In this document: in pieces, positions 1,456 to 24,058 of the stretch
Layout of the letters: every line of letters starts with the position of its first letter
Numbering within the stretch: position 1 is the stretch's first letter
IMG/VR virus record: IMGVR_UViG_3300017913_002030
Span: 19,939-83,938 of that record
DNA from: a virus
Lineage: Duplodnaviria; Caudoviricetes
Direction: 5' to 3' (one strand)
Length of the DNA stretch: 64,000 bases
The notes under the pieces: model-generated
Told to the model about the DNA's origin: nothing
Database searches by the model: none
The model's input: only the letters and a program-made list of their open reading frames with translations
Program-made: the position numbers and the translations under genes

Positions 1456-4400
1456 TTATAATAAACCTAATTTTACTCGAAGTGCAGATCCATCATAGAT
1501 CTTAATACCATCGTCTGTGATTTCTGTTCTTGCGCCTGTTTGCCCGACACCAACGTTTAGGTTTCCTGTTACTTGTGTATTAGTTAATGTTACTGTATTT
1601 CCTGATACAGCAAATGGTGTCTTGGTTCCACCTGTAGTCTTGATCTTAAAGTCGTCTGACTGAACAATGAATGAGTTTCTGTCAGTACCGTTGACAATAT
1701 TGAATCCAGTGAACGTACCATTATTGTCTAGACCGACTGTGTATTCTTGTTCGATCGTTGATAATCCACCTTCAACGTTAGTGACGCGTTGTGACAATGT
1801 ATTGGTCGCAGTCGCAACCTTTCCATCTACTTCACTCTCTAGAACGTAACCAGCATTCTGAATAGTAGAGATGCTACCTTCCGTCGCATCAATTCTTCCT
1901 GATAACGTATTTGTTGTAGATATCGTCGCGTAAGTATTGCCTAAGTCTAACTCGGACTCAAATGTTGTTATCTCAGAATTAACGATCGTTGTGATTTCTG
2001 CATCGGTACGAATTTCGCCACGCAACTCTGACTTAGCACTGTTAACTGCACTAGTCAATTGACTACCCGTAACTCTATCTAAGTTCTGGTCGAATGTGGT
2101 GATCTTGGCATCTACTAGACTATTGATTTCACCGTCAGTGCGTATCTCAGAACGTAACTCATCTTTGGCATCACTTACTAAGGTCGCAGCGACCCCAGCA
2201 GTCTCGTAATTAAGACTATTTGAGAACTCCTCAATTTTCGTATTGATGATCGCAGTTGCTTCAGAGTCATTTAATAGTTCACCACGAAGCTCAGATTTAA
2301 CCGAGTTTGTTGCTGATGTTAACTGGGAAGCAGTAACTCTATCAAGGTTCTGATCAAACGTTGTGATCTTGGCATCTACTAGAGTATTGATCTCGCCATC
2401 TGTTCTGATCTCTGATCTTAGTTCATCTTTGGCATCACTAACCAGTGTGGCTGCAACACCAGCAGTCTCGTAATTAAGACTATTCGAGAACTCCTCAATC
2501 TTCGTGTTAATAATAGCAGTTGCTTCGGAATCATTTAGCAATTCACCACGGAGTTCAGACTTAACTGAGTTTGTGGCAGAAGTTAACTGGGCGGCAGTAA
2601 CTCGATCTAGATTCTGATCAAACGCTGTGACCTTAGTATCAATAAGACTATTGATCTCACCATCGGTTCTAATCTCAGATCGTAATTCGTCCTTCGCGTC
2701 ACTAACCAAAGTTGCTGCAACGCCTGCAGTCTCATAATTAAGACTATTCGAGAACTCATCAATCTTTGTGTTTATGATTGCAGTTGCTTCAGAGTCATTT
2801 AATAGTTCGCCTCGCAACTCGGACTTAACTGAGTTTGTGGCAGAAGTTAACTCGGCCGATGTAACCCTATCTAAGCTCTGGTCGAATGCTGTGACCTTAG
2901 TATCAATTAAAGAATTAATTTCACCGTCAGTGCGTATCTCTGACCTTAGTTCATCTTTAGCATCACTAACCAAAGTTGCAGCGACCCCAGCAGTTTCATA
3001 ATTGAGGCTGTTGGAGAACTCATCGATCTTTGTGTTGATGATTGCTGTCGCCTCAGAGTCATTTAATAATTCACCACGGAGTTCAGACTTAACTGAGTTT
3101 GTTGCGCTGGTCAACTCACTCGCTGTAACTCGATCTAGAGATTGATCAAACGTTGTGATCTTAGTGTCAATAAGACTATTGATCTCACCATCGGTTCTAA
3201 TCTCTGATCTTAACTCTTCTTTGGCGTCACTAACTAAAGTTGCGGCAACACCAGCAGTTTCATAATTGAGGTCGCCAGAGAACTCTGTAATCTTGGCATT
3301 AATTAGTGCGGTTGTTTCAGAGTCATCTAGCAGTTCGGCTCTCATTTCATCTTTGGCACTATTAACTGCTGTTGTTAACTCACCCGCTGTAACTCGATCA
3401 AGACTCTGATCGAACGATGTGATCTTAGTATCGATAAGCGCATTGACTTCGGAATCAGTACGTATCTCTGATCTTAACTCATCCTTAGCATCACTAACTA
3501 AAGTTGCTGCAACGCCTGCAGTCTCATAATTAAGACTATTCGAGAACTCTGTAATCTTTGTATTAACAATGGTTGTCGCTTCGTCTGAATTAAGAAGTTC
3601 ACCCCTCAACTCATCTCTAACTGAGTTTGTTGCGCTGGTTAACTCACCTGCTGTAACCCGATCAAGACTCTGGTCGAACGTCGTTATCTTAGTATCGATA
3701 AGACTATTGATCTCGCCATCTGTTCTGATCTCTGATCGAAGTTCTTCTTTTGCATCGCTCACTAATGTCGCGGCAACACCGGCAGTCTCGTAGTTAAGAT
3801 CGCCAGAGAATTCGGTGATCTTTGCGTTAATCAGCGCTGTTGTCTCCGAGTCATCCAATAACTCAGATCTCATTTCATCTTTGGCACTATTAACTGCTGT
3901 TGTTAATTGTGCTGCAGTAACTCGATCTAGAGATTGATCAAACGTTGTGATCTTTGTATCGATAAGGGCGTTTACTTCGGAGTCTGTTCTAATTTCAGAT
4001 CGCAGTTCTTCTTTAGCGTCACTAACTAATGTCGCAGCGACACCAGCAGTTTCATAGTTAAGCGTGCCGGAGAATTCTGTAATCTTAGTATTAACAATCG
4101 TAGTTGCTTCGCCAGAATCTAATAGCTCTGAACGTAATGCATCTGACGCAGAGTTTACCGCACTCGTGATATCTGAATCTGTAACTAAATCTAGAGATTG
4201 ATTAAATGTCGTAATCTTACTGTCGATTAGAGCATTGACTTCGGAGTCTGTTCGAATTTCAGATCGAAGTTCGTCTTTGGCATCACTGACCAAAGTTGCA
4301 GCGACCCCAGCAGTTTCATAATTGAGGGTCCCAGAAAATTCTGTGATCTTAGTGTTAACAATCGTAGTTGCTTCATCTGAATTTAGCAGTTCTGCCCTTA

Positions 4401-18992: not shown

Positions 18993-19583
18993 ATGTCTAA
19001 CATATTTCAGAATCTAGAACTGCAAGCGTTTCGTGCTGGGGTCACTCCTCGTACTAAGGAGTCACGTGAATGGTTCAGAAAAAAGATCAAGAATCTTCGT
19101 AGCATAAAACGCGAAGAGTTGATGAAAGAAGATCCGCTCAAACAGACCAGTCAAGAAGTTGTAGGTAGCATGTACATGTTTTTCTACGATCCTAAACACA
19201 AGAAGACGCTGCCATATTACGATGCGTTCCCTCTTGTTGTTGTAGTGGGTCCTGCTGAAGGTGGATTCTATGGGTTGAATCTTCATTATTTGCCACCTAT
19301 TCTACGTGCGAAAATGTTAGACGCATTGATGGACATTACGACAAATAAAAAGTTCAATGACTCGACTCGATTCAAAATGTCATATGAACTTCTAACTCGT
19401 ACTGCAAAACTGAAATACTTCAAGCCGTGTTTTAAACATTACTTGACTGAACATGTACAGAGTAGACTAGCAATGGTACCTGCACCAGAATGGGAAATTG
19501 CAACGTTCTTACCGACGGCAGACTTCCGTAAGGCGAACTCTAAGAAAGTCTATGCAGACTCACAGAAAATGATAGGCGACTAA
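18993..19583 (+). CDS. gp2: DNA end protector gp2
   Basis: MYMFFYDPKHKKTLPYYDAFPLV and GLNLHYLPP motifs. Confidence 0.93.
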   Translation: MSNIFQNLELQAFRAGVTPRTKESREWFRKKIKNLRSIKREELMKEDPLKQTSQEVVGSMYMFFYDPKHKKTLPYYDAFPLVVVVGPAEGGFYGLNLHYLPPILRAKMLDALMDITTNKKFNDSTRFKMSYELLTRTAKLKYFKPCFKHYLTEHVQSRLAMVPAPEWEIATFLPTADFRKANSKKVYADSQKMIGD

Positions 19584-20218
19584 TGGCTGATATCGAAGAT
19601 TTAAAAAGCAGACTCACAAAGAAGAACGGTATTGCGTCTACTAACCAGTACAAAGTAGTACTCCCTGGCTTCAAAGGTGCGTCGTCGAAAAAGGATCTAG
19701 ACCTTCTCTGTAAAGAAGTAAACATGCCTGGTAAACAAATTCTCACGGCAGACAGACAAATTGGCATTTACAGTGAAAAGATGGTGAATGGATTTGCAGT
19801 AGAAGATGTGTCAATGACATTCTATGTCTTAAATGACTATGGTGTCAAGAAGTGGTTTGACACTTGGCGCGGCCGAATGGTCGGCGATTCAAGATCTGAC
19901 GCAGGTCGCGGTACTGTCGGATACAAAAAAGATTACGTCGAACAGATTGAGATCCACCAACTGAGAAAGCCAGTCGCACGATTTGGGTTCGATCTTGGTC
20001 CACTCGATATTGACTTTGATGTACTTGGTGCATCAATATACAGCGTAAAACTAATCGATGCATTTCCAACAACATTGTCTTCGATACAATTATCGAATGA
20101 TGCTGATGGTTTAGTCGAAGTGAATATACAGTTCTCTTATACGAACTGGGAAGTTATGAAAGATGAAAGAAGTCTACTTGACTTAGATATAAATCTAAAT
20201 CTAGGTGGTTTAATTTAA
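19583..20218 (+). CDS. gp54: Tail-tube initiator gp54 (gp19 tail-tube family)
   Basis: LLCKEVNMPGKQI and YSVKLIDAFPTTLSSIQLS...VNIQFSYTNW motifs. Confidence 0.75.
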   Translation: MADIEDLKSRLTKKNGIASTNQYKVVLPGFKGASSKKDLDLLCKEVNMPGKQILTADRQIGIYSEKMVNGFAVEDVSMTFYVLNDYGVKKWFDTWRGRMVGDSRSDAGRGTVGYKKDYVEQIEIHQLRKPVARFGFDLGPLDIDFDVLGASIYSVKLIDAFPTTLSSIQLSNDADGLVEVNIQFSYTNWEVMKDERSLLDLDINLNLGGLI

Positions 20219-20234
20219 ATTATTAGGATACATT

Positions 20235-20942
20235 ATGGCATTACCAAAACTTAATTCTGCACCTGTTTATGAAATGACTGTACCGTCTACTGGTCAGAGC
20301 GTTACATACAGACCATTTCTGGTGAAAGAACAGAAGAATCTTCTAATCGCATTCGAGGCACAAAACAGACGCGACCTTGTTCGTGCGGTTCAACGTACGA
20401 TCGAGGCGTGTGTAGAAGATCGCATAGACAATAGACTGACAACGTTTGATGTAGACTATATGTTTACCAAGATTCGTGCAAAGTCTGTTGGTGAGACTGC
20501 TGACGTACTCATACCGTGCTCTGAATGCGAGACACAAAACGAAGTAAAGGTCGATCTAGACGATATTTCAGTAGACGCAGAAATGCCTGAGATGACGGTA
20601 GATGTCACCGATAGTGTCTCTGTTCAAATGAAGTTTCCGACGTACGATGACTTTCTATCGAACGATATGTTATTAGATAGTACGACTGTAACAGAGGCTC
20701 TATTACAATTGATTATCACATGTATGGACTCTGTGCTCACAGAAGAAGAGAGATACTCGCTACGTGATGAGTCGCACGAAGAAGTGGTCAACTTTTTAGA
20801 GTCAATGACAGCAGAACAGTTTGAAAAGATCTCGCAATTTGCGAATAATATTCCAAACGTTACTAAAAATATTTCTTTCTCTTGCACGTCATGTGGTCAT
20901 GAGAATGAAAAGACATTGAAAGGACTTGATGATTTTTTTTAA
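20235..20942 (+). CDS. gp26: Baseplate hub assembly chaperone gp26
   Basis: MALPKL..PVYEMTVPSTG..VTYRPFLVKEQKNLLIA, KIRAKSVGE and CxxC pairs; ends ...LKGLDDFF*. Confidence 0.9.
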   Translation: MALPKLNSAPVYEMTVPSTGQSVTYRPFLVKEQKNLLIAFEAQNRRDLVRAVQRTIEACVEDRIDNRLTTFDVDYMFTKIRAKSVGETADVLIPCSECETQNEVKVDLDDISVDAEMPEMTVDVTDSVSVQMKFPTYDDFLSNDMLLDSTTVTEALLQLIITCMDSVLTEEERYSLRDESHEEVVNFLESMTAEQFEKISQFANNIPNVTKNISFSCTSCGHENEKTLKGLDDFF

Positions 20943-21121
20943 TAAATCTCTCTCATGATAGTTTGACCAATTATTATCAAGTCAATTTTCAACTAATGAA
21001 TAACTTTAATTACTCATTAGATGAGGTCGAAGGGATGATGCCTTGGGAGAGAGAAATCTACTTAACACTATTAGTTGATGATATAAAAGAAAAGAATCAA
21101 CGGGCGAAACAACAAGGATAA
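20933..21121 (+). CDS. gp51: gp51-like hub assembly catalyst ORF in the -1 frame relative to gp26 (first ATG only at 20996)
   Basis: Frame open from 20933: FFLINLSHDSLTNYYQVNFQLMNNFNYSLDEVEGMMPWEREIYLTLLVDDIKEKNQRAKQQG*; MPWEREIY is characteristic of T4-like gp51. Confidence 0.8.
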   Translation, partial: FFLINLSHDSLTNYYQVNFQLMNNFNYSLDEVEGMMPWEREIYLTLLVDDIKEKNQRAKQQG

Positions 21122-21124
21122 AAA

Positions 21125-22813
21125 ATGAGCCTTAGAGCCGTATCAGAAAAACTAGGTCAACAGACTGATCTTCTAGTGGAGATCGGTAATGATATCTATG
21201 ATTACTTAGATACGGTAATCGAACGTAGTGTGTTGACTGGCGCAAGTCTAGACAGTCTAAACTCGACCAACATGCAAATACTGCAAACGATCGAGGCAGC
21301 GCAACAACCAACAGGTGACGAATTAGAAGAGAAACGTGATCGTCAAGCATTCGATAATAGAATGTTGACCCTAATGCAAGAGATCGCAACTAACACCAAA
21401 GGCGGCAAAGAAAAGAGTGGCGGTGGTTCTAATATAGGATTTTTTGCTGGTGCCTTAGCAGGAGCGGCAAGGGGTGTGGGTGCTGGTGCTGGTTTCGCCG
21501 CATTAGGTTTGGGCATCGGCGCATTCTTTGCAGGTCTTGTTGCTGCGGATGCTGCAGGCAGTTATCTCAGAGTAGATGGTTCAGCACTTAAAAATCAAAT
21601 AATCAATCTAAGTGAAGCCCTATCTGCCGCACCTAAAGATGGACTTTTAATACTCGGCGGTCTCATTGCGGGTGGCGGTATCTTAGGTGCGCTTGCCGGA
21701 ACTCGTGCGTCTGGTAGAGGCGCAGGTGGTATGGCTGCTCTAGGTCTTGGGCTAGGTGGGTTCTTTGCAGGTCTTGCTGTAGGCGATAAGGCAATGTCTT
21801 GGATGAATGTTGACGGATCTAAACTAAAAGCAATGATGGTGAATCTTGCCGAAGGTTTGAGTGCATTCAGTGGTGGTCAGTTAGCAGGTATTGGTGCACT
21901 TCTGGCAGTGGGCGGAATATTTGGCGCATTACCGGGAGGCGCAGGTCTCAAAGCGTTAGGTAAGGCCGCTGTTGGCATGACTGCAATTGGTGCAGGTATA
22001 GGTGGATTCTTTGCGGGTCTTGCACTGGGTGACAAGGCGATGGACTGGATGAACGTCGATGGATCCAATCTACGCGATATGATGATTAACTTAGGTGATG
22101 GTCTGACAGGACTCACTCAACCTGACTACGGAAAACTTTTACTATTTCCAGGCGCTGCTGCGGCCGCAGCATTAGGTATTGCCGTATTAACAGGCGCTAA
22201 GGCAGTAGATGGGGTTTCAAATTTTATAGGTTCTATAGGCGATTTTATCACTGGCGATTCATCAACAATGTATGATCGTATCACCGAAGGTCTTAAAAAG
22301 CTTGAGACCGTAGACACAGAAAAATTGAAGCAATTTGATCCAGCAGCGATTGCGATAGGTAATATGGCGTCAGCATTGAATGCCATGGGCGATGTCAATA
22401 TGGGAGATGTTCAAAAATCTGTAGAAGGTCTTGCTGACACGCTTGCATTCACTATACCTATGCTGCATGAAGCGTCTATTGGTGGAACATTTAAATATGA
22501 CGGTGGTATATTTAAAGGCGATGTCGAACGAGATTTCTCGCCTGGACTAAACAGTATACCTAAATCAACTTTCGATAAAATCAATTCGATCGTTTCTGTG
22601 AACACGGCGTCTCAACAAAACGCGCCAACATCTTCTAATAACATGTCTACACTGATTCGTGAGAGTAATGAGACTAAGAATAATGCGCCTGTAGTCGTAA
22701 TGGATAACAGCACATCTAACGTCAACGGAGGCGGAGGTGGCGGCGGACCTATCATAGAGTCGAGCGTTTCTTATAACGATACATTAGACCCATACATCGT
22801 TACCCGCAAATAA
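21125..22813 (+). CDS. Tape measure-like protein (gp29 position)
   Basis: 562 aa, helical N-terminus, Gly/Ala-rich repeated hydrophobic segments, C-terminal APVVVMDNS motif; follows gp26/gp51. Confidence 0.65.
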   Translation: MSLRAVSEKLGQQTDLLVEIGNDIYDYLDTVIERSVLTGASLDSLNSTNMQILQTIEAAQQPTGDELEEKRDRQAFDNRMLTLMQEIATNTKGGKEKSGGGSNIGFFAGALAGAARGVGAGAGFAALGLGIGAFFAGLVAADAAGSYLRVDGSALKNQIINLSEALSAAPKDGLLILGGLIAGGGILGALAGTRASGRGAGGMAALGLGLGGFFAGLAVGDKAMSWMNVDGSKLKAMMVNLAEGLSAFSGGQLAGIGALLAVGGIFGALPGGAGLKALGKAAVGMTAIGAGIGGFFAGLALGDKAMDWMNVDGSNLRDMMINLGDGLTGLTQPDYGKLLLFPGAAAAAALGIAVLTGAKAVDGVSNFIGSIGDFITGDSSTMYDRITEGLKKLETVDTEKLKQFDPAAIAIGNMASALNAMGDVNMGDVQKSVEGLADTLAFTIPMLHEASIGGTFKYDGGIFKGDVERDFSPGLNSIPKSTFDKINSIVSVNTASQQNAPTSSNNMSTLIRESNETKNNAPVVVMDNSTSNVNGGGGGGGPIIESSVSYNDTLDPYIVTRK

Positions 22814-22844
22814 AAAAAAGAGGACTTAATGTCCTCTTACTTTT
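22811..22844. terminator. Intrinsic terminator between convergent genes
   Basis: AAGAGGAC-TTAAT-GTCCTCTT hairpin flanked by an A8 tract (minus-strand U tract) and ACTTTT. Confidence 0.8.
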
Positions 22845-23106
22845 AGTGATTGAGAATTGCTTCAATCATTCGTGCTTTAGTCCAAGATGGTCTGAGTTCT
22901 GGTCTCACTCCGATAGTATTACCAATAGTGATTAACTCCGCCTTAGTCAACGCATTTAGTTCTTCCTCAGTATAAGAAGGCGTTGGTTGTTCAGGCTCGA
23001 CAACATCTTTTACAGGTTTGGTGGGTTTGCTAGAAGCAGTTCTCCACATTACCGCAAAAACAACTACCGCTAAGATAATTGCTAGTACTGCATACTCCTG
23101 TGACAT
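22843..23106 (-). CDS. Small membrane-anchored protein with a C-terminal Rho-N/SAP-like helix pair
   Basis: MSQEYAVLAIILAVVVFAVMW TM segment; LNALTKAELITIG...WTKARMIEAIL; start reassigned to 23106. Confidence 0.6.
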   Translation of the reverse strand: MSQEYAVLAIILAVVVFAVMWRTASSKPTKPVKDVVEPEQPTPSYTEEELNALTKAELITIGNTIGVRPELRPSWTKARMIEAILNH

Positions 23107-23110
23107 TTGA

Positions 23111-24058
23111 TTAGTCCTCCGCTGCCATCTGTGCAAAGTACGACAGAGTGTCGTCCTCTTCGGTCGCGACCGCTGCAGTGGCAGGAACAGGAGCGGCTAC
23201 GATTGTTGGTTCAGATGCTTCTGCGATAGGCGCAGAGTCAGCGGTTTGAGCGAGAGCTTCGTTTTTCAACGTCGCACCAGCACCTGTGGCCAAACCTAGT
23301 ACAGTCTCTAACTTAGCCTTGAGGTCGTCATACGACTTGAACCAGTTCGAATCGTGTGCGTTAGGGTAGTTAGGGACTACAAACTCATTTAGATCATACA
23401 GAGTATTGTAGATCGCCTCGAGTTGTGTCTCATCAGCACCAGCAAGTGGGGCAGGAGTCTTGAAGTCAGACTTGTCATAGTTGCGATAACCCGCGACATT
23501 GCGGATCTTCAACTCAAAGTCGGCACCTGTCCAAAAGTCAAACGGATTGACTGGCTCCTCGCCTGGAAATTCTGGTTGCATCATATCCATGATCTTATCA
23601 AAGATCTTCTTACCGAACTCATAGATGAACACTTTGCCGTTGTTCGCTGGATTCGCAGGATCGTTAATAACTTGGATGTTTGTGACATAGTGTAGACGAC
23701 GCTTCTGGCGACGTGCTGTCTCTTTGTCTTCTTCGATGCCTGAGTTCCACAGACGTGAGTTCAACTCACCCACAGGGTCATTCTGACCTAGTGTAGTCAA
23801 TGAGCGTTCGATATACCACTGTCCGGTTGGACCTTTGAACGCGTGATCCCAGTAGCGAACCCAAGGGAGATCTTGACCTTCGGTCGCAGGAAGAAAACGA
23901 ATAACAGCGTAGCCGTTGCCCTGTTCATCAACAGTTGGCTTCCACTTTCGGTCGTCTTGATACTTGTTGGTGTTGGTGGTCTGACCCGCCGCTTCTGTCG
24001 CAGCGCTGACCAACTTAGAGATGTCCATAGATCTGGACTTAAGATTTGCAAAAGACAT
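23111..24058 (-). CDS. gp32: Single-stranded DNA-binding protein gp32
   Basis: GNGYAVIRFLP, WYIERSLTTLGQNDPV, YEFGKKIFDKI, NPFDFWTGADFELKI and YRNYDKSDF motifs; acidic tail. Confidence 0.96.
   Translation of the reverse strand: MSFANLKSRSMDISKLVSAATEAAGQTTNTNKYQDDRKWKPTVDEQGNGYAVIRFLPATEGQDLPWVRYWDHAFKGPTGQWYIERSLTTLGQNDPVGELNSRLWNSGIEEDKETARRQKRRLHYVTNIQVINDPANPANNGKVFIYEFGKKIFDKIMDMMQPEFPGEEPVNPFDFWTGADFELKIRNVAGYRNYDKSDFKTPAPLAGADETQLEAIYNTLYDLNEFVVPNYPNAHDSNWFKSYDDLKAKLETVLGLATGAGATLKNEALAQTADSAPIAEASEPTIVAAPVPATAAVATEEDDTLSYFAQMAAED

Follow-up and report, generated by a model that had tools for sequence, protein, structure and literature searches.

The window, as we call the whole 64,000-nucleotide stretch of DNA analysed here, belongs to an uncultured marine T4-like phage, and its source record is an 84-kb metagenomic fragment estimated to be about 50% complete and carrying one PF12322 copy. 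On the plus strand, a gp2-like gene, a tail-tube-like gene, gp26, a stretch in the −1 frame and a 562-aa open reading frame (ORF) follow each other in this order (Table 1), and the region is flanked by gp48 and gp32 on the minus strand. The records of Mosig and Aeromonas P19 label the syntenic counterpart of the tail-tube-like gene 'baseplate tail tube initiator'. The gp26 product matched PF12322 (T4_baseplate) over its full length and above the gathering score (205 bits, E = 1.5e-60, model positions 2–218 of 219), and phrog_150 at 2.4e-61, indicating that it is a member of the T4 gp26/gp51 family.

The 3′ end of gp26 reads GAT TTT TTT TAA TAA, and the protein ends with ...GLDDFF. The slippery heptamer lies within a run of eight T residues (T8) at 20933–20940. 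In the −1 frame, a TGA at 20930–20932 is followed by 62 sense codons, which are FF plus 60 others, and by a TAA at 21119–21121. An earlier note on this DNA had proposed a programmed −1 frameshift that fuses gp26 to gp51 directly upstream of the tape measure gene. The elements on which it relied, namely the heptamer immediately before the stop, the −1 frame open from the TGA for 62 codons and the AAGGA located 8 nt before the heptamer, were all found in the sequence. T8 runs per se are not enriched in the window, being 5 in number against 7.8 expected from shuffles. Such a run is not exceptional by itself, and it is significant solely through its placement, conserved and in frame, among relatives.

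Table 1. Features around the gp26–gp51 junction (window coordinates)
Feature	Position	Strand	Remark
gp2-like DNA end protector	18993..19583	+	
Tail-tube-like gene (gp54/gp19-like, 211 aa)	19583..20218	+	phrog_45 'tail tube' 2.6e-30; directly 5′ of gp26
gp26 ORF, zero frame, predicted short product of 235 aa	20235..20942	+	TAA stop at 20940–20942
SD-like AAGGA, putative stimulator	20920..20924	+	8 nt 5′ of the heptamer
Slippery heptamer T_TTT_TTT	20933..20939	+	In phase with gp26; spans the invariant FF codons
−1 frame extension, 60 codons (LINLSHDSL...) plus TAA	20939..21121	+	Homologous to gp51; predicted C-terminal module of the long form (295 aa)
562-aa ORF, tape-measure candidate by position	21125..22813	+	Begins 3 nt past the gp51 stop

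The translation of the −1 ORF (62 residues) matched phrog_634, the 'baseplate hub assembly catalyst' gp51, at 3.8e-24 over profile positions 59–115 of 121, and it also matched the C-terminal positions 235–282 of phrog_150, the gp26 family. A tblastn search with the same ORF detected 574 phage records, and in most of the matches listed the aligned part begins within the FF pair (query residue 1 or 2). Codon-position entropy was determined in the −1 frame for 37 distinct sequences of the clade to which the window belongs. Between the heptamer and the ATG of the window, the values were 0.21, 0.08 and 1.03 bits for the three codon positions, and the same pattern was observed 3′ of the ATG (0.29, 0.19 and 1.14 bits). 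Among these 37 sequences, 14 of 19 residues in the stretch before the ATG were invariant, and the other two frames contained on average 1.8–2.6 stops. The coding-type entropy before the ATG indicates that the 21 pre-ATG codons are translated, as the earlier note had supposed from their coding appearance.

If gp51 were instead a separate gene, a free protein of 41–52 aa would be made from TTG 20963 or ATG 20996. The majority of GenBank records for relatives follow this view, with short CDSs in C48C1, S-PM2, Mosig, D486 and phiM7, and in some lineages an ATG is located 6–12 nt past the heptamer, within 2–3 codons in S-PM2 and Vibrio D486, where separate initiation is possible. No start is conserved, however. 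When all lineages are considered, the −1 frame has its first ATG +6 to +99 nt after the heptamer in most loci and upstream of the heptamer in a few. In the window clade, it stands at +57 or +96, some members being without any start codon before it, and initiation at these positions would lose 19–32 conserved residues. Many relatives have CTA or CTG in place of the TTG, which encodes Leu. Neither ATG 20996 nor TTG 20963 is preceded by a purine-rich motif or SD, unlike the ATGs of gp26 and the 562-aa ORF, which have AGGA or AAGGA 6–11 nt upstream; the lack of a ribosome-binding site at ATG 20996, one of the points of the earlier note, was thus reproduced. Both constraint and homology begin at FF itself, and in T4 the module is carried by gp51 in fusion with a gp26-like domain (see below). 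In five GenBank records, the region carries no annotation, since ORF callers detect no start there. Taken from the sequence comparisons, the conclusion that translation does not start within the small 'gp51' ORF itself is strongly supported, and we regard expression as two separate genes as very unlikely. A −1 ORF without conserved start or ribosome-binding site, and under coding selection from the shift site onward, is one mark of the G/GT type of frameshifted gene.

Another mark, a heptamer conserved close to the 3′ end of the upstream ORF and in its reading phase, was sought among relatives. The set included 244 loci, comprising the window, 11 isolate phages (among them C48C1, S-WAM1, S-PM2, Mosig, Vibrio D486, Sinorhizobium phiM7, Aeromonas P19 and ACG-2014d) and about 230 IMG/VR contigs, which formed 28 clusters of less than 60% identity. 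Loci were counted when gp26 and the gp51 domain were both present on one strand. The IMG/VR contigs were retrieved with three different gp26 queries; a search for related loci with gp26 of Vibrio D486 as the query gave no matches. In all 244 loci, the gp51 part was in the −1 frame relative to gp26, behind an in-frame T_TTT_TTY. Within the window clade (81 loci, gp26 identity 53–88%), the sequence was always GAT TTT TTT T followed by AA, AG or GA, and the three resulting zero-frame stops are synonymous Leu codons (TTA or TTG) in the −1 frame. Most other clades carry NNT TTT TTC and terminate the zero frame one codon later, and the distance between the heptamer and the zero-frame stop ranged from 0 to 8 codons over all loci. 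The alignment of junctions across relatives, proposed in the earlier note as a check, thus revealed conservation of the slippery heptamer and FF and, in the window clade, of the pre-ATG coding stretch.

This survey bears also on the quality of the sequence. Homopolymer length errors are common and the window derives from a metagenomic contig, so that the true run might be T9 and gp26–gp51 a plain ORF of 295 aa. The run was T8, however, in all 81 independently assembled loci of the window clade. In the other clades, where it is T6C or T7, the −1 relation is unchanged and a zero-frame stop is close by, and among these are finished isolate genomes obtained by different sequencing methods (S-PM2, P-SSM2, phiM7, Mosig and D486). 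The probability of an assembly artefact is therefore negligible.

The codon immediately 5′ of the first Phe ended with T in every locus, though it codes for D, S, N, A, T or H, and the first Phe codon was TTT throughout. At other positions of the same genes, the usage of TTT is 0.60 and that of T-ending codons 0.49, giving a joint P of 1.2e-15 for the 28 clusters. The FF pair itself was invariant in 85 gp26 sequences of the frameshift type, and the equivalent site in T4-type gp26 and gp51 is variable (FF, FL, FV, VF, LF or IF). As judged from this codon usage, the constraint on the heptamer is one that acts on the RNA, beyond the protein alone, because TTT and the T-ending codon are fixed while the amino acid varies, and because FF is variable where no frameshift takes place.

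The same fusion protein would be produced by transcriptional slippage, in which RNA polymerase adds one U on the T8 run and yields an in-frame mRNA. The invariance of T8 in the window clade (81 of 81 loci) is in line with such slippage, and E. coli genes avoid runs of at least seven A or T whatever the frame, in part because of such slippage (PMC4066793). In about 20 of the 28 clusters, however, the run consists of six T followed by C (T_TTT_TTC), which is too short for efficient polymerase slippage, and the heptamer keeps strictly to the codon phase of gp26, a property relevant to the ribosome and not to the polymerase. Since most clades have six T yet maintain the codon phase, transcriptional slippage is not the general mechanism. 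We consider it improbable as the explanation of the fusion, although it may add to the fusion yield in the window clade.

We consider it highly probable that a −1 slip of the ribosome on the conserved T run yields both the 235-aa gp26 and a 295-aa gp26–gp51 fusion from one gene. Most ribosomes would terminate at the UAA at 20940 and release the 235-aa gp26. Some would slip by −1 on U_UUU_UUU (20933–20939), where the tRNA-Phe molecules in the P and A sites could re-pair with UUU and UUU, and would continue in the −1 frame to make the 295-aa fusion ...GLDDFF-LINLSHDSL.... Alternatively, the P-site tRNA alone might slip, with the neighbouring stop codon in the A site still undecoded; since the stop follows directly after the heptamer in the window clade, this P-site slippage would provide a second route to the same product. 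The rate of slipping would set the ratio of short to long form. Motifs of the type H_HH.U_UU.Y, to which U_UU.U_UU.Y belongs, rank with the most efficient −1 motifs of E. coli, and IS elements employ U_UU.U_UU.C (PMC4066793).

Possible stimulators of this ribosomal slip were examined on both sides of the heptamer. No conserved downstream RNA structure was detected in the window clade by RNAalifold analysis of 37 distinct sequences (−0.15 kcal/mol, no supported helix), and the folding z of the downstream sequence of the window was −0.25 to −1.7. A pseudoknot-like pairing of 5+5 bp at 20956–20985, noticed by eye, was dropped as it required a one-base loop across a 5-bp stem. Strong hairpins are located 4–10 nt 3′ of the heptamer in other lineages, such as S-WAM1 (z −6.9), S-PM2 (−4.4), phiM7 (−4.3) and D486 (−3.6). 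On the upstream side, a purine-rich xAGG or xGGG was found at the spacing of AAGGA in most of the 28 cluster representatives, being weak or absent in three of them (L204, L209 and L228). This spot encodes a conserved E, K or R followed by G, which is present also in T4-type gp26 without frameshift. The SD-like element is thus inseparable from the protein motif, because any codon pair for E/K/R-Gly gives an SD-like 4-mer. By analogy with the spacing in dnaX, AAGGA is a possible stimulator of the frameshift.

The relationship to T4 was then considered. In the T4 genome (NC_000866), gene 26 (complement 115802..116428, 208 aa) and gene 51 (116479..117228, 249 aa) are divergently transcribed neighbours. 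T4 gp26 matched the whole of PF12322 at 8.8e-64, and so did residues 1–201 of T4 gp51 at 3.9e-52; gp26 and gp51 of KIT01, RB49 and Abraxas likewise both match the whole family model. The remaining part of T4 gp51, residues 200–247, was similar to residues 2–50 of the −1 ORF of the window (35% identity, E = 8e-8). By sequence comparison, T4 gp51 is a second full gp26-like gene product with an extension of about 48 aa, and not the small ORF. The statement of the earlier note that g26 and g51 are separate genes in T4 holds as to the number of genes, and needs correction as to the nature of gene 51, which corresponds to a full gp26-like gene plus extension.

Colinearity was observed over the whole length of the long form. 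In a multiple alignment, T4-type gp51 proteins were colinear across the junction with the trans-frame fusions of eight frameshift-type phages, and T4-type gp26 extends 3–4 residues beyond the site equivalent to FF. The profile built from four T4-type gp51 proteins aligned with residues 24–286 of the window fusion in a single stretch (E = 1.6e-17, Z = 1e6). Among complete genomes, C48C1, S-PM2, Mosig and Vibrio D486 contain one PF12322 gene each, and the T4-type KIT01 contains two. Since T4 gp51 consists of a gp26-like domain plus extension, T4 has the same short/long pair, and these alignments strongly support the interpretation that the two forms come from two paralogous genes in T4 and from one gene with a frameshift in other lineages. 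The short and long forms of the window would then correspond to T4 gp26 (208 aa) and gp51 (249 aa), needed for assembly of the baseplate hub and the tail. Together with the heptamer in all 244 loci, its constraint and the coding nature of the pre-ATG stretch, the colinearity with T4 gp51 bears out the programmed −1 frameshift proposed in the earlier note. The tree of the PF12322 domain consists of three well-separated clades (T4 gp26, T4 gp51 and the frameshift type) with long branches on which no root can be placed, and it does not give the order of frameshift and duplication.

The 562-aa ORF is rich in Gly (16%) and Ala (13%), contains several (about six) hydrophobic stretches within residues 117–364, and is preceded by AAGGA 5′ of its ATG; clade relatives measure 492 to 672 aa. 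Searches against Pfam, PHROG and NCBIfam gave no match. Neither the 562-aa ORF nor the syntenic ORFs of D486, P19, Mosig, phiM7 and C48C1 matched PF25671 (T4_Tape_measure, T4 gp29), the threshold for the former being E ≤ 0.1 and the positive control, gp29 of KIT01, scoring 5.9e-87. Nor did a 42-member profile and all-against-all BLASTP detect homology between the 562-aa ORF and T4 gp29, or between it and its syntenic counterparts in other lineages. In the Atlas, the T4_Tape_measure cluster appeared only at rank 13 (0.92). From its position, size and composition, it is a reasonable guess that the 562-aa ORF encodes the tape measure. The earlier note placed the junction directly upstream of the tape measure; what adjoins it is an ORF of suitable size and composition in which homology to T4 gp29 (PF25671) was not detectable. 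The gp26–gp51 gene has the phrog_45 tail-tube-like gene on its 5′ side and, on its 3′ side, a candidate tape measure gene that fits in place, size and composition, with no family match.

The structure of window gp26 was predicted by AlphaFold (AF2) with an alignment of 85 sequences (pLDDT 89.5, pTM 0.84) and compared with 48,161 PDB representatives. For residues 1–90 of the model, the top three matches were 3fgx (Z 7.8, 84 aa, rmsd 3.9), 2ob9, the HK97 tail assembly chaperone gp13 (Z 7.3, 82 aa, rmsd 3.8), and 3klu, YqbN (Z 6.9), all with Z below 8, and the next matches reached only 4.9 and 3.9. These three entries, 3FGX (Rbstp2171), 2OB9 and 3KLU, are exactly the three solved tail assembly chaperones (PMC9603447). 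By Foldseek against PDB, 2ob9 was found with a probability of 0.77 but an E-value of 1.1, and nothing was significant; a sequence search of PDB with gp26 detected no relative. A natural T4-type gp51 from IMG/VR was also modelled (pLDDT 87.2). Two of the same chaperone chains were matched at only Z 4.0 (ranks 16–17), and the extension, residues 205–249, was predicted with lower confidence as a small three-helix module.

In the model, the tail assembly chaperone fold is thus the best match of the N-terminal 90 residues of gp26. This match and the gene order, in which a tube-like gene, the chaperone, the −1 ORF and a long ORF follow one another, support by analogy the suggestion that the gp26/gp26–gp51 pair works like lambda G/GT. 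The shared N-terminal domain with the chaperone fold would hold the tail-length or hub protein encoded just downstream, and a partner from the tube or hub would be recruited through the 60-aa three-helix extension. Distant homology between gp26/gp51 and the lambda-type tail assembly chaperones is plausible from the predicted structure. To the fuller proposal, that the two are truly homologous, that the ancestor used a G/GT frameshift, and that the T-evens later duplicated the gene so that gp26 corresponds to G and gp51 to GT, we give somewhat less than an even chance. In the GenBank record of the Acinetobacter phage Abraxas, gp26, gp51 and gp28 are labelled 'tape measure protein assembly chaperone'.

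What gp26 and gp51 do in hub assembly has been uncertain ever since the 1970s. The present analysis offers a concrete and testable role for both. If the homology with lambda-type chaperones is true, T4 would obey the general rule of long-tailed phages, and the targets of T4 gp26 and gp51 would be the tape measure gp29 and the tube or hub, in place of a role as an undefined 'catalyst'. Both proteins have been listed as hub assembly chaperones, gp51 being absent from the virion (Leiman et al. 2010, PMC3004832). The frameshift in tail chaperone genes has been deemed nearly universal in long-tailed phages 'except T4' (2016 review, PMC5009743). No report of a gp26–gp51 frameshift or of the paralogue interpretation was found in the open-access PMC and bioRxiv literature, and none of the GenBank records inspected joins the gp26 and gp51 ORFs. 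As far as this literature and these records go, the −1 frameshift of the tail chaperone type had not been reported for the gp26/gp51 family and the T4-like phage group. With it, most of the T4 exception would be removed: the non-T-even members of the T4 superfamily, including cyanophages, pelagiphages, KVP40-like vibriophages, some Aeromonas phages and rhizobiophages, would use the frameshift, and T4 encodes the same pair as two genes. The annotation of hundreds of genomes, in which gp51 was called as a truncated mini-ORF or missed, could be corrected, and the family offers a natural comparison of two ways to set a protein ratio, recoding and gene duplication.

The gp26–gp51 locus may finally be compared with known systems. 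With T4 it shares the family PF12322 and the plan of short and long forms. T4 differs in having two diverged genes that need no recoding, whereas the window has one gene with a frameshift, and also in that genes 27 and 28 lie between genes 51 and 29, whereas the 562-aa ORF follows at once in the window. With the gamma/tau system of E. coli dnaX, the window shares a −1 slip, probable in its case, on a homopolymeric heptamer and an SD-like sequence about 8–10 nt upstream as a possible stimulator; dnaX differs in that it needs a strong downstream hairpin, none being conserved in the window clade, and in that its frameshift product is the shorter one, while that of the window would be the longer.

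The closest parallel in gene organization is lambda. According to the account given in PMC5009743 (citing Levin 1993; Xu, Hendrix, Duda 2004, 2013, 2014), lambda gpG/gpGT represent a conserved −1 frameshift in the chaperone genes of long-tailed phages. In both cases, a tail-tube-like gene, a chaperone ORF, a −1 ORF without start and a long downstream gene are arranged in this order, a conserved heptamer is located at the end of the first ORF, and the short and C-extended products, predicted ones in the window, share the N-terminal part. The two differ in that there is no sequence similarity between them, in the heptamer, which is U_UUU_UUY here and G_GGA_AAG in lambda, and in the size of gp26, which is about twice as long owing to an added middle domain and a CxxC...CxxC zinc-ribbon-like part. 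By analogy with lambda G/GT, the two products of the window phage might bind the tape measure and tube and be made in a set ratio. The E/E+E′ pair of P2 is a further comparable frameshift system.

Strong hairpins were found to start 4-10 nt past the heptamer, the proposed −1 frameshift site, in S-WAM1, S-PM2, Vibrio D486 and phiM7, with MFE values of −17 to −27 kcal/mol and z-scores of −3.6 to −6.9. In the window's clade, no such hairpin was detected after the heptamer. The stimulators of frameshifting seem to differ from lineage to lineage. In 32 of the relative loci, an additional pattern of the X_XXY_YYZ type, G_GGT_TTA/G or A_AAT_TTT, was observed a few codons 5' of T_TTT_TTC (for instance near position 2990 of the ACG-2014d locus, L092). 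The pattern falls within the E-G-L codons and probably arises as their by-product.

The gp51 region, roughly 180 nt between gp26 and the next gene, carries no annotation in five GenBank records (S-WAM1, Aeromonas P19, ACG-2014d, S-MbCM6 and S-CAM1), and in other records it is given as mini-ORFs truncated to 34-57 aa. The gp51 reading frame of a 167-kb T4-like genome from IMG/VR (L269) ends after 120 codons, which may reflect either a misassembly or a disrupted gene.

The ORF that follows gp51 in the window encodes a Gly/Ala-rich product of 562 aa in which residues 117-364 contain about six hydrophobic stretches. Its relatives within the clade range from 492 to 672 aa in length. Searches of Pfam, PHROGs and NCBIfam gave no family match, and no sequence relatedness to T4 gp29 was detected. 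Judging from its position, size and composition, the product is probably the tail-length protein. The stop codon of this ORF ends within an A8 run, which reads as T8 on the minus strand and sits in the short spacer ahead of a convergent ORF.

Coordinates of features in the window and in relative loci
Feature	Locus	Position	Strand	Remark
562-aa ORF	window	21125-22813	+	ATG 3 nt after gp51 stop
A8 run	window	22812-22819	+	
Convergent ORF	window	22843-23136	−	
Hairpin	L002 (S-WAM1)	about 2512-2575		
gp51 reading frame	L269	901-1260		
Product 26'	L257 (T4)	3803-4090		NP_813811.1

When the AlphaFold model of gp26 was compared with BFVD, fold matches at E-values of 1e-6 to 1e-10 were obtained in proteins of large myoviruses beyond the T4 group, namely Bacillus SP-15 and BCD7, Ralstonia phiRSL1, Campylobacter CP220, Tenacibaculum PTm1 and Ackermannviridae. 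The family of chaperones may extend far beyond what PF12322 implies. In the T4 record, an internal in-frame product, 26', is annotated inside gene 26, and therefore T4 may make a third form of the gp26/gp51 chaperone family.
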